From: a bacterium
Lineage (GTDB): Bacteria > Myxococcota_A > Bradymonadia > REDH01
NCBI GenBank assembly: GCA_030427825.1
Contig: JAUICO010000008.1
Span: 513 to 64,512, forward strand
Length of the DNA stretch: 64,000 nt
Reading direction: 5' to 3'
Shown piece by piece: positions 49,280 to 58,462 of the stretch. The first letter of the stretch is position 1. Each line of letters opens with the position of its first letter. The notes beneath the pieces were generated by a model, which had not been told where the DNA came from, ran no database searches, and worked only from the letters and a program-made list of their open reading frames with translations. The position numbers were made by a program, and so were the translations under genes.

Positions 49280-51064
49280 ATGCACTACGAATACCGAACG
49301 CTTGCCCAGTCCATTGTCGACTCAGCGGCGAGGTATCCCAACAACACGATGACCTTTCAGGACAGCTCCGGCGCTGAAACGAGCTACACCTATCCTGAGT
49401 TTGAGAAACGCACCGCAGAAGTAGCCGCCGGCATGCAGGCGCGCGGAATGAAGCAGGGGGACACGGTTGGACTCGTGATCATCGAGCCGGAAGATTTCGT
49501 GACCACCTTCATGGCTGCACAGCGTATCGGTGTGATTCCGGTGCCGCTGTACCCGCCGATGTCGATGGCGGATCTCGACGCCTATCTGGGCAAGCTCACC
49601 CGCATCGTTACAGATGCAGGGGCGACCGCGATGATCGTGTCCGATCGCCTGAAGCTGGTGCTCTTTCAGCTTGTCGACCGCGTCCCGTCCCTGAAGCGTA
49701 TCGAGATCGCATCGAAGCTGGCAAGCCCCGGAAAGACACCGGACTATCCGGTCGTCGAGCTCGACGACATCTCCTTCCTTCAATACACGTCCGGGTCGAC
49801 GTCGGACCCGAAAGGCGTAGTCGTCACCCACCGAAGCCTCAGCGCCAACGCGCAGGCAACCCTGTACGCAGGCCTGGAAGGCGGCGACTTCGACACGACC
49901 GTCAGCTGGCTGCCGTTGTACCACGACATGGGCCTCATCGGGTTCGTGATCATGCCGCTGATCGCCGGCATGAACGCGGTGTTCATCCCAACGATGCGCT
50001 TCCTAAAGCGACCGAATACGTGGATGGAGACGGTCAGCCGACACCGTGGGACCATCACGTTCTGCCCGCCCTTTGCGCTCGCGCTCGCTGCGCGTCGCGC
50101 GAAGTCGAAGCAGCTCGATAGCTGGGACCTTTCCTCGTTGCGCGTCGTTGGCGTCGGCGCGGAGCCGATCAACGCCGATGGTGTGCGACAGTTCACCGAC
50201 CTCTTTCATTCGCGCTGTAATCTGCCGAAGAACGCGGTCCTCTCGGCCTACGGCATGGCAGAAGCGACGCTCGCGATGTCGCTCAAGCGGGTCAACGAAC
50301 CGCTGAAGACCCGCTTCATCAATCATCAGACCTTCCAGGACGAAGGCATCGCCGTCGAGCGCACTCCCGGCAAAGAGGCGATCGAGCATGTCTCGTGCGG
50401 CGTCACGTTTCCCGGACACGAGGTCGCGGCGTTCACGGAACACGGCGTCGAATGCGCCGAAGGTGTCGAGGGCGAGCTTCGCTTTCGCGGCCCCTCGGTC
50501 GCTGCCGGATACCTCGGAAACGCAGAGGCCACGGCAGAGACCTTCCTCTCTGACGGTTGGCTGCGCACCGGCGATCTCGGCTACATTCATGAAGGTGAGA
50601 TCTACGTCACCGGGCGCATGAAGGACCTGATCATCGTCAACGGCCGGAACATTCATCCACAGGCCATCGAGTGGCCGCTCTACGAAATTGAGGGGGTACG
50701 CCGCGGCAACGTCGTAGCGTTCTCGCGTCCCGGCGACTCTACAGAAGAGCTGGTTATCGTCGTCGAGACCCGCGGAGAAGCACCTGAGGGCATGGTCAAC
50801 GCCATCCGCGAGTGCGTACAGACCGAGTTTGGTCTGGCCGTCGGCGACGTACGCGTGCTGCCGGCAGGCCACCTTCCCAAGACCTCATCCGGCAAGCTGC
50901 AGCGTCGACGTACGCGACAGCTCTACCTGTCGGGCCGCCTTGGCGTGGAAGGTTCACGCCAGATGGGGACCAACGCATCGAAGGTCTCACTTGCCCGTCA
51001 CGTCGCGCGCTCCATGTGGTCGCGCGTGAAGCAGGCAACACTCAGCCTGATGGTGTTTCGATAG
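49280..51064 (+). CDS. fatty acyl-AMP ligase (FAAL)
   Basis: ATG at 49280 preceded by GGGGGA. FLQYTSGSTSDPKGVVVTHRSL (FAAL-type A3 motif), YGMAEATLA, GDLGYIHEGEIYVTGRMKDLIIVNGRNIHPQ, LPKTSSGKLQRR. No C-terminal carrier domain. Confidence 0.85.
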   Translation: MHYEYRTLAQSIVDSAARYPNNTMTFQDSSGAETSYTYPEFEKRTAEVAAGMQARGMKQGDTVGLVIIEPEDFVTTFMAAQRIGVIPVPLYPPMSMADLDAYLGKLTRIVTDAGATAMIVSDRLKLVLFQLVDRVPSLKRIEIASKLASPGKTPDYPVVELDDISFLQYTSGSTSDPKGVVVTHRSLSANAQATLYAGLEGGDFDTTVSWLPLYHDMGLIGFVIMPLIAGMNAVFIPTMRFLKRPNTWMETVSRHRGTITFCPPFALALAARRAKSKQLDSWDLSSLRVVGVGAEPINADGVRQFTDLFHSRCNLPKNAVLSAYGMAEATLAMSLKRVNEPLKTRFINHQTFQDEGIAVERTPGKEAIEHVSCGVTFPGHEVAAFTEHGVECAEGVEGELRFRGPSVAAGYLGNAEATAETFLSDGWLRTGDLGYIHEGEIYVTGRMKDLIIVNGRNIHPQAIEWPLYEIEGVRRGNVVAFSRPGDSTEELVIVVETRGEAPEGMVNAIRECVQTEFGLAVGDVRVLPAGHLPKTSSGKLQRRRTRQLYLSGRLGVEGSRQMGTNASKVSLARHVARSMWSRVKQATLSLMVFR

Positions 51065-51075
51065 AGAAGGTGGGC

Positions 51076-57656: not shown

Positions 57657-58462
57657 GAGTACTCTTCGCGGCGGCGTCTCCCGGTGACCTCGCAGGCGGC
57701 TCCTATGACGCTCAGCTGGCGCAGCTGCGCGAATCTGACCAACACCGGGCCGCCGACCTTCCCCGGGCCGCCTCACGGGAGAGCTTTGTGGCCTCGCGTC
57801 TGGTGCGCGACCGCCTCCTGCAGCAGCGCTGCGATTGGGACGGAACGCCATTGCTGCGATTGAAGGACGAGCGTCGTCTCTTTCGCACACGGGGTGGCGC
57901 CTGGGGCGTCGTGTCTCTGGCACACACGGATGGCATGGTTGCAGTGGCCGCGGCGGAGGGGATCGCGGTGGGCATCGACGTCGAAGCTGCGACGCGACCA
58001 TGCCGCTTTCGTGCGCTTTCACAGCGCTATTTCTCATCGCGGGAGGCGACGCGGATACGCGAATTGGACGATCAAAGCGGACACCGTGCCTTCATCGAGC
58101 TTTGGACACTCAAAGAGGCCTACGGAAAGGCGACCGGCGAAGGTGTGGCGATGGTTGCAGCGCACGCAGAGTTTGAGTGGCGTCCGGCTAACGTAACAAA
58201 CACGGCAGGCGGCGTGTATGGCGCCGTCGCTGTGCCGAAACACGCTGCGCCGAAACACGCTGCGCCGAAGCACGCTGTGCCGAAGCACGCTTCGCACGTC
58301 GTCACCACACAGCGACACCTGCGATTCCTGCGCAATGACGTCCCGCTCACGCAGTGGAGCTTCACGCAGCAACAACACGACGGCTTTGTCGTCGCGGTCG
58401 CCGCCGCCGCCCACGGAGTGCATTTCGAGTGTGTGGAAGTGTGGGCTCCGCATCCATTCTGA
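57653..58462 (+). CDS. 4'-phosphopantetheinyl transferase (Sfp-type)
   Basis: GTG at 57653 overlaps the PKS stop (GTGA). GIDVEAA and FIELWTLKEAYGKATGEG motifs. Confidence 0.85.
   Translation: MRVLFAAASPGDLAGGSYDAQLAQLRESDQHRAADLPRAASRESFVASRLVRDRLLQQRCDWDGTPLLRLKDERRLFRTRGGAWGVVSLAHTDGMVAVAAAEGIAVGIDVEAATRPCRFRALSQRYFSSREATRIRELDDQSGHRAFIELWTLKEAYGKATGEGVAMVAAHAEFEWRPANVTNTAGGVYGAVAVPKHAAPKHAAPKHAVPKHASHVVTTQRHLRFLRNDVPLTQWSFTQQQHDGFVVAVAAAAHGVHFECVEVWAPHPF
58231..58290 (+). repeat. 15-bp tandem repeat (4 copies) inside the PPTase gene
   Basis: tgtgccgaaacacgc, tgcgccgaaacacgc, tgcgccgaagcacgc, tgtgccgaagcacgc, encoding VPKHA APKHA APKHA VPKHA. Confidence 0.9.

Novelty: I know of separately encoded PKS plus AONS-like pairs (RkpA/RkpG and WcbR/WcbT in capsule lipid-anchor loci). 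I also know of other AONS-containing synthases (SxtA, fungal Fum8). I do not know of this fused KS-AT-ACP-KR-DH-AOS enzyme packaged with its own FAAL and PPTase. I cannot verify novelty without a database search.
How to check it: - Run antiSMASH and HMMER: PF00501, PF00109/PF02801, PF00698, PF00550, PF08659, PF14765, PF00155, PF01648.
- Run BLASTP or CDART of the whole 2126-aa protein and look for co-linear full-length hits and any MIBiG link.
- Express the three genes heterologously and compare lipid LC-MS/MS, with 13C/15N-serine, alanine or glycine feeding.
What would refute it: - The C-terminal domain fails to score as an alpha-oxoamine synthase, or lacks the PLP lysine when aligned.
- Database hits show the same architecture already tied to a characterised product.
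- The junction at about 56360..56500 proves to be an assembly artefact.
Basis: partly seen in the sequence, partly recalled or inferred. Interest (0 to 1): 0.85.

Follow-up and report, generated by a model that had tools for sequence, protein, structure and literature searches.

What would a locus make that sets a fatty acyl-AMP ligase (FAAL), a polyketide synthase (PKS) fused to an alpha-oxoamine synthase (AOS), and an Sfp-type 4'-phosphopantetheinyl transferase (PPTase) side by side? Three such genes, co-directional on the + strand, occupy positions 49280-58462 of the 64-kb stretch of DNA analyzed here (hereafter, the window), which comes from the genome of an uncultured, myxobacterium-like bacterium. 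The initial annotation had proposed that a fatty acid is loaded, extended, reduced, and dehydrated by these enzymes, and that the AOS domain then off-loads the chain as a sphingoid-like lipid. The layout behind this proposal was confirmed by both the ORFs and Pfam: a FAAL, a 2126-aa KS-AT-ACP-KR-DH-AOS protein, and a PPTase, in which the KS, AT, PP-binding, KR, DH, Aminotran_1_2, AMP-binding, and ACPS domains were all found. The mechanistic reading is itself supported by intact catalytic residues and by 50% identity of the AOS domain to PfSgaB, as described below. The cassette is probably an uncharacterised fused variant of the polyketide route to bacterial sphingolipids reported in 2025, producing a sphingosine-like amino-lipid from a fatty acid. 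Judging from the sequence, we put the chance that it forms a self-contained three-gene set for a long-chain 2-amino-3-keto (sphingoid-type) lipid somewhat above even.

The first gene (49280..51064) encodes a predicted FAAL of 594 aa. Its ORF spans 49157..51064; the start codon was picked from the ribosome-binding site, and the ATG at 49280, which is preceded by GAAGGGGG, is the likely start, in agreement with the earlier placement. AMP-binding is the sole Pfam domain (E 9.5e-67), with no PP-binding domain, and the motif FLQYTSGSTSDPKGV occupies residues 166-180; the motif and the missing carrier domain had both been pointed out before, correctly. The top NCBIfam match was the model 'fatty acyl-AMP ligase' PRK09192 (474.6 bits, under the 600-bit subfamily cut-off). 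In the PDB, the E. coli FAAL 3PBK matched best (8e-95) and other FAALs came next; the eleven best sequences are all FAALs or FAAL domains (3PBK, 7R7E-G, 3KXW, FadD32, and FadD23). By similarity, its closest relatives are FAALs, not acyl-CoA synthetases. When this FAAL and three relatives were aligned with E. coli FadD, about 30 extra residues were found directly after YGMAEAT, a position that we take to be that of the FAAL-specific insertion of the FAAL literature. Transfer of the acyl group to a carrier protein, and not to CoA, is predicted, and the context, namely ACP genes beside the FAAL in eight other family loci, supports this. FAAL is the usual upstream partner of the fused PKS-AOS in the family: of the 13 family loci with enough upstream flank, 11 have a FAAL homologue upstream, and so does the closest relative (L087).

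A non-coding spacer of 211 bp (51065..51275; no strand assigned) separates the FAAL and PKS genes, where many relatives carry a gene for a stand-alone ACP of 82-85 aa. This gene is present in L001-L004 and L012-L015, following the FAAL directly in seven family loci and lying between FAAL and PKS in an eighth, and is absent in L005, L008, L011, and L087. We found no ACP-like sequence in three frames of the spacer, where tblastn was empty as well, and tblastn with three family ACPs gave only chance matches across the whole 64-kb window. An ORF running into the PKS start codon (50812..51279) was considered as a hidden ACP and rejected, as it proved not to be one. The earlier remark on the absence of a second ACP thus holds for the window but not for the family. 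Since ACP-less versions recur with all genes intact (L005, L008, L011, and L087), the stand-alone ACP is dispensable.

The central gene (51276..57656) encodes the 2126-aa fusion protein, delineated by Pfam, NCBIfam, and homologue alignment. Pfam placed KS at residues 5-401, AT at 551-839, PP-binding at 951-1015, KR at 1232-1395, DH at 1448-1690, and Aminotran_1_2 at 1772-2115. The KS domain (51288..52478; PF00109, PF02801) has the catalytic triad Cys201, His336, and His373, invariant in 120 of 120 homologues. The AT domain (52926..53792; PF00698) contains GHS650VG, Arg675, and H748-G-F-H751, a malonyl-type motif under the HAFH/YASH rule, and would load malonyl. The only carrier domain is an ACP (54126..54320; PF00550) with an LGFDS motif, whose Ser978 is invariant among homologues. 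The KR domain (54969..55460; PF08659) carries TGGTRGIG and the catalytic residues Lys1331, Ser1354, Tyr1367, and Asn1371, likewise invariant among homologues; from L1311-A-D1313 and the LxD motif rule, it is presumably B-type (3R-hydroxy). A PKS-type DH domain follows (55617..56345; PF21089, PF14765), with His1469...Pro1478 and Asp1618xxxGln1622, and its catalytic His and Asp/Gln are conserved in all 120 homologues. Taken together, the catalytic residues of KS, AT, ACP, KR, DH, and AOS are all intact and invariant in 120/120 homologues, which indicates selection on every domain, DH among them. Pfam and NCBIfam detected no ER in the protein, and no ER family occurs among the Pfam domains of the homologues.

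Between DH and AOS lies an Ala/Asp/Pro-rich stretch of low conservation (56346..56507; homologue alignment), a junction that had been flagged as a possible assembly artefact. It is a normal interdomain linker and not an artefact, because the DH-AOS fusion is common to more than 120 full-length co-linear homologues and because L088, a contig of a different assembly (Logan SRR24442553), matches window positions 46772-57984 at 99.97%.

The C-terminal domain (56508..57653) scores as an alpha-oxoamine synthase, as the initial annotation had it (PF00155, E 3.3e-40), with the PLP lysine (Lys1973) aligned. We found the features of the AOS family, that is, PLP fold type I with Lys in a (T/S)xSK motif and the His, Asp, His, and Arg residues: the domain contains His1841, Asp1938, His1941, Thr1970, Lys1973, and Arg2096, and all six are the same in 120 of 120 homologues. 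The domain shares 50% identity and 71% similarity with PfSgaB over 392 aa (390 bits, E 6e-138), against 34% identity with canonical SPT, 31% with Kbl, and 28% with BioF. Its best PDB match was a Sphingobacterium SPT (1e-67, 232 bits; aligned to 3A2B over 359 residues). In a rough NJ tree, it grouped with SgaB-type sequences, apart from canonical SPT; the tree is star-like within the clade, and no order of fusion events is drawn from it. On these comparisons, the domain belongs to the SgaB clade, which also holds FAAL-ACP-AOS and KS-AT-ACP-AOS assembly lines. The NCBIfam models were reached neither for BioF (324.6 bits, cut-off 426) and KBL (289.3, 460) nor for SPT (SerpalmtaseCFB, 295.1, 640; BetaP, 268.7, 500; AlphaP, 214.9, 670), and we set these equivalogs aside as a guide to amino-acid specificity because all scores are below cut-off and contradictory (BioF > SPT > KBL). 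PfSgaB, a biochemically established serine palmitoyltransferase, showed a near-exclusive preference for L-Ser over Ala and Gly in vitro, making 3-ketodihydrosphingosine, and is required for sphinganines in vivo (PMC12134224). Extrapolating across 50% identity, L-serine is most likely the amino-acid substrate of the window AOS as well.

The third gene (57653..58462) encodes the PPTase, of 269 aa (ACPS PF01648, E 3.9e-15). Its GTG overlaps the PKS stop codon (GTGA), an overlap that had been reported earlier and is indeed present. With an ACPS domain, a length within about 230-270 aa, and the GxD and WxxKEAxxK motifs, here as GIDVE and WTLKEAYGKATG, the protein has the marks of an Sfp-type enzyme. 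NCBIfam matches to HetI (top), AcpT, and AusB were all under cut-off, and PDB matches to AASDHPPT and Sfp were weak. A homologous PPTase lies downstream of the PKS in L003, L005, L006, and L087.

Pfam and NCBIfam profile searches of the cassette were negative for TE, C domain, ER, and thioester reductase alike, consistent with what had been claimed, and no reductase, N-acyltransferase, or transporter adjoins it in the 64-kb window. A promoter/terminator scan of 48900-58800 returned nothing exceeding shuffle expectation. The fused gene has a restriction-modification pair and unrelated genes as its neighbours. An unknown of about 380 aa and an MBL gene upstream were rejected as extra cassette members, being common only to the closest relative (local synteny). 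A different 380-aa unknown follows the PKS in four other loci and is not present in the window.

The more than 120 full-length co-linear homologues of the 2126-aa protein come from MAGs of Myxococcota, "Deltaproteobacteria", and Bradymonadales, and are annotated generically as "aminotransferase class I/II-fold PLP-dependent enzyme". An ACP-less FAAL-PKS-PPTase layout like that of the window is also found in the closest relative, L087 (58% identity). In three distant members, an SDR of the HpnA/OleD-like lipid oxo-reductase type adjoins the PKS or the FAAL, which fits a 3-keto product needing reduction. A search of 72,556 plasmids for an annotated RkpA or SgaA gave no full-length match. An Ensifer plasmid match (L084) is irrelevant, being an iturin-type KS-AT-ACP-aminotransferase(III)-NRPS hybrid, and a Burkholderia plasmid match (4580-aa ORF) was also set aside as irrelevant.

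From these components, we propose the following pathway. The PPTase would turn the single ACP (Ser978) into its holo form. The FAAL would adenylate a free fatty acid and pass the acyl group to the PKS's own ACP and then to KS Cys201; loading onto the internal ACP is assumed because the genome segment has no dedicated loading ACP. After the AT had loaded malonyl, the KS would lengthen the chain by one C2 unit, and the B-type KR and the DH would yield a (2E)-enoyl-ACP, whose double bond would be kept because no ER is present. The AOS would bind an amino acid, most probably L-serine, as its PLP aldimine and join it to the enoyl thioester by decarboxylative Claisen condensation, releasing a 3-keto-sphing-4-enine-type base. 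A Cn fatty acid would thus give a C(n+4) base, for example, a C18 skeleton from C14, and genes for a 3-ketoreductase and for any N-acylation would lie elsewhere in the genome. We infer a single extension round from the architecture alone: a fatty-acid loader beside a single module suggests that a ready-made chain is extended once. The pathway as a whole, from FAAL priming and one malonyl extension through the enoyl-ACP to serine condensation into a 3-keto-sphing-4-enine-type base, is in our estimate slightly favored. That the KR-DH pair sets the 4E double bond before serine condensation, amounting to a desaturase-independent route to delta-4-unsaturated sphingosine-type bases, is a tentative suggestion that we would place well short of even; to our knowledge, there is no precedent for an alpha,beta-unsaturated thioester as an AOS substrate.

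Other readings of the same genes need to be weighed against this pathway. The AOS might take an amino acid other than serine, such as alanine or glycine, giving a 1-deoxy-/1-desoxymethyl-type amino-ketone lipid. AOS enzymes at about 50% identity can differ in substrate, the clade spans FAAL-ACP-AOS and KS-AT-ACP-AOS lines that are unlikely to share one, and the top NCBIfam score belongs to BioF (324.6 vs. 295.1 bits for SPT, all below cut-off). However, PfSgaB, the only characterised clade member, is near-exclusive for L-Ser over Ala and Gly, and the best PDB match is an SPT; we regard a non-serine substrate as a real but minor possibility. The double bond might also be lost: if a trans-acting ER encoded elsewhere reduced the enoyl group, the PKS would merely add C2 and the product would be a saturated 3-ketodihydrosphingosine-type base. 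Synthases with the PfaA order (KS-AT-ACP-KR-DH) usually depend on a separate ER, for example PfaD, and against the PfaA model the PKS half reaches 508 bits. The products characterised for SgaAB, too, are saturated sphinganines (PMC12134224). Nevertheless, no conserved ER gene stands beside the PKS in the 16 family loci examined or near the cassette in the window, and a single fully reduced C2 unit would duplicate FAS, making a dedicated PKS hard to justify, and we consider such a reduction unlikely.

Less likely still is that the module iterates, adding several malonyl units to form a conjugated polyenoyl chain that the AOS would release as a polyene amino-ketone. Single-module bacterial PKSs often iterate, and in its ER-less KS-AT-ACP-KR-DH set the module is like the iterative PKSs that form polyenes. 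SgaA, which works with a related AOS, is likewise iterative (PMC12134224). A dedicated, conserved FAAL, accompanied by a loading ACP in many relatives, nonetheless implies a long pre-formed primer, whereas for SgaA-type de novo systems, the single sgaAB-type locus that we examined shows no FAAL in its sequenced flank. As for the cassette being a decaying remnant, which has lost its loading ACP and whose FAAL is unable to feed the PKS, one could point to the ACP genes found between FAAL and PKS in 8 family loci and missing here, and to the insertion of the restriction-modification pair just upstream. We think this very improbable: the three ORFs are intact, every catalytic residue is preserved, and the translational coupling of PKS and PPTase (GTGA) is kept, while L087, L005, L008, and L011 are equally ACP-less, which argues that this arrangement is old and maintained.

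How does the proposed route, with one extension and serine condensation, relate to known systems? In Pseudomonas fluorescens MYb115, the iterative PKS SgaA and the AOS SgaB make sphinganines, and a cblaster survey found this kind of gene pair to be common in Burkholderia, Sinorhizobium, and others (Peters et al., Nat Commun 2025, PMC12134224). The surveyed pairs are of the WcbR/WcbT and RkpA/RkpG type. The window cassette resembles SgaAB in that a type I PKS would give an acyl thioester to an AOS making a sphingoid base. SgaA, however, is a separate KS-AT-DH-ER-KR-ACP protein of 2507 aa that builds saturated C22-C26 chains iteratively, whereas the window PKS is fused to its AOS, follows the order KS-AT-ACP-KR-DH, lacks an ER, and has a FAAL and a PPTase as partners. 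An SgaA homologue (L086:2471-9994) has the KS-AT-DH-ER-KR-ACP set, which the window PKS does not share, and only KS-AT of the latter aligns with SgaA (about 30% identity). The Pseudomonas sgaAB-type locus that we examined contains an SDR and three Capsule_synth (KpsC/KpsS-type) genes; the window departs from the SgaAB pattern, in which PKS and AOS are encoded by two genes accompanied by a KDSR-like SDR and by genes of the KpsC/KpsS type. A role in capsule lipid anchoring (RkpA/RkpG, WcbR/WcbT) was rejected here, as the window contains no capsule or Kps genes and the PKS architecture is unlike the SgaA/WcbR type.

Other fused or FAAL-primed systems share part of this design. Planctomycetes have single-chain KS-AT-DH-ER-KR-ACP-AOS proteins, such as that of Blastopirellula marina DSM 3645 (L036), whose AOS is in the same clade (53% identity); unlike the window protein, they keep the canonical fully reducing order with an ER and place the ACP directly beside the AOS, and they are expected to act effectively as fused SgaA-SgaB, yielding saturated chains. 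RedL of undecylprodigiosin biosynthesis (A-ACP-KS-AT-ACP-AOS) and the actinomycete KS-AT-ACP-AOS proteins (L025, L029, and L091; about 50-52% identity to the window AOS) resemble the cassette in their fatty-acyl starter, single malonyl extension, and release by a fused AOS. They have no KR or DH and keep the beta-keto group, and in RedL a pyrrole arises after condensation with glycine, whereas the KR and DH of the window protein remove the beta-keto option. Canonical SPTs (Sphingobacterium multivorum 3A2B/8GUH; Sphingomonas 2JG2) have the same PLP fold type I and His/Asp/His/Lys/Arg set, but stand alone, are about 400 aa long, and take acyl-CoA or a small acyl-ACP; identity is about 34%. The cyanobacterial olefin synthase Ols (FAAL-ACP-KS-AT-KR-ACP-ST-TE) likewise combines a FAAL-activated fatty acid, one malonyl extension, beta-carbon processing, and unusual off-loading, but its sulfotransferase and thioesterase generate a terminal alkene, with no PLP domain and no nitrogen. 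PfaA/HglE-type synthases share the KS-AT-ACP-KR-DH order and a HetI/PfaE-like Sfp-type PPTase partner; PfaA differs in its tandem ACPs and its partners PfaB, PfaC, and PfaD (a separate ER), and has neither AOS nor FAAL. Although its order matches, the window PKS is not a PfaA-type subunit, having a single ACP, a score of 507.9 bits against the NCBIfam PfaA model (cut-off 1010), and no pfaB/C/D-like genes in the window.

The novelty claimed in the initial annotation therefore needs to be narrowed. Neither the fused family nor a characterised member was found in the full-text literature searched (CC-licensed PMC and bioRxiv, where subscription-only papers could be missed), and a 2013 survey of PLP domains in assembly lines lists no KS-AT-ACP-KR-DH-AOS architecture (PMC3870968). 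As far as the searchable literature shows, the ER-less, PfaA-ordered, FAAL-primed fused enzyme and its product are undescribed, and this part of the claim stands. The rest was overstated, because the PKS-plus-AOS route has been published as SgaAB (PMC12134224), which covers the RkpA/RkpG- and WcbR/WcbT-type pairs, and because the fused architecture is that of a large Myxococcota-type MAG family, with other fused layouts existing besides.

Bacterial sphingolipid production has so far been inferred mainly from the canonical spt gene. SgaAB established that a PKS and an AOS can replace it (PMC12134224), and the present cassette points to a third, more compact solution to sphingoid bases, in a family that seems to be spread widely among uncultured predatory and soil lineages and that current annotation fails to reveal. 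If the enoyl chain does reach the AOS, the 4,5-double bond of sphingosine would arise without a desaturase, the substrate scope of AOS biocatalysts would grow to enoyl thioesters, and a three-gene self-priming part would be available for engineering unsaturated sphingoid bases. A whole uncultured Myxococcota/Bradymonadales lineage would then use a single megaenzyme to turn ordinary fatty acids into unsaturated sphingoid lipids.

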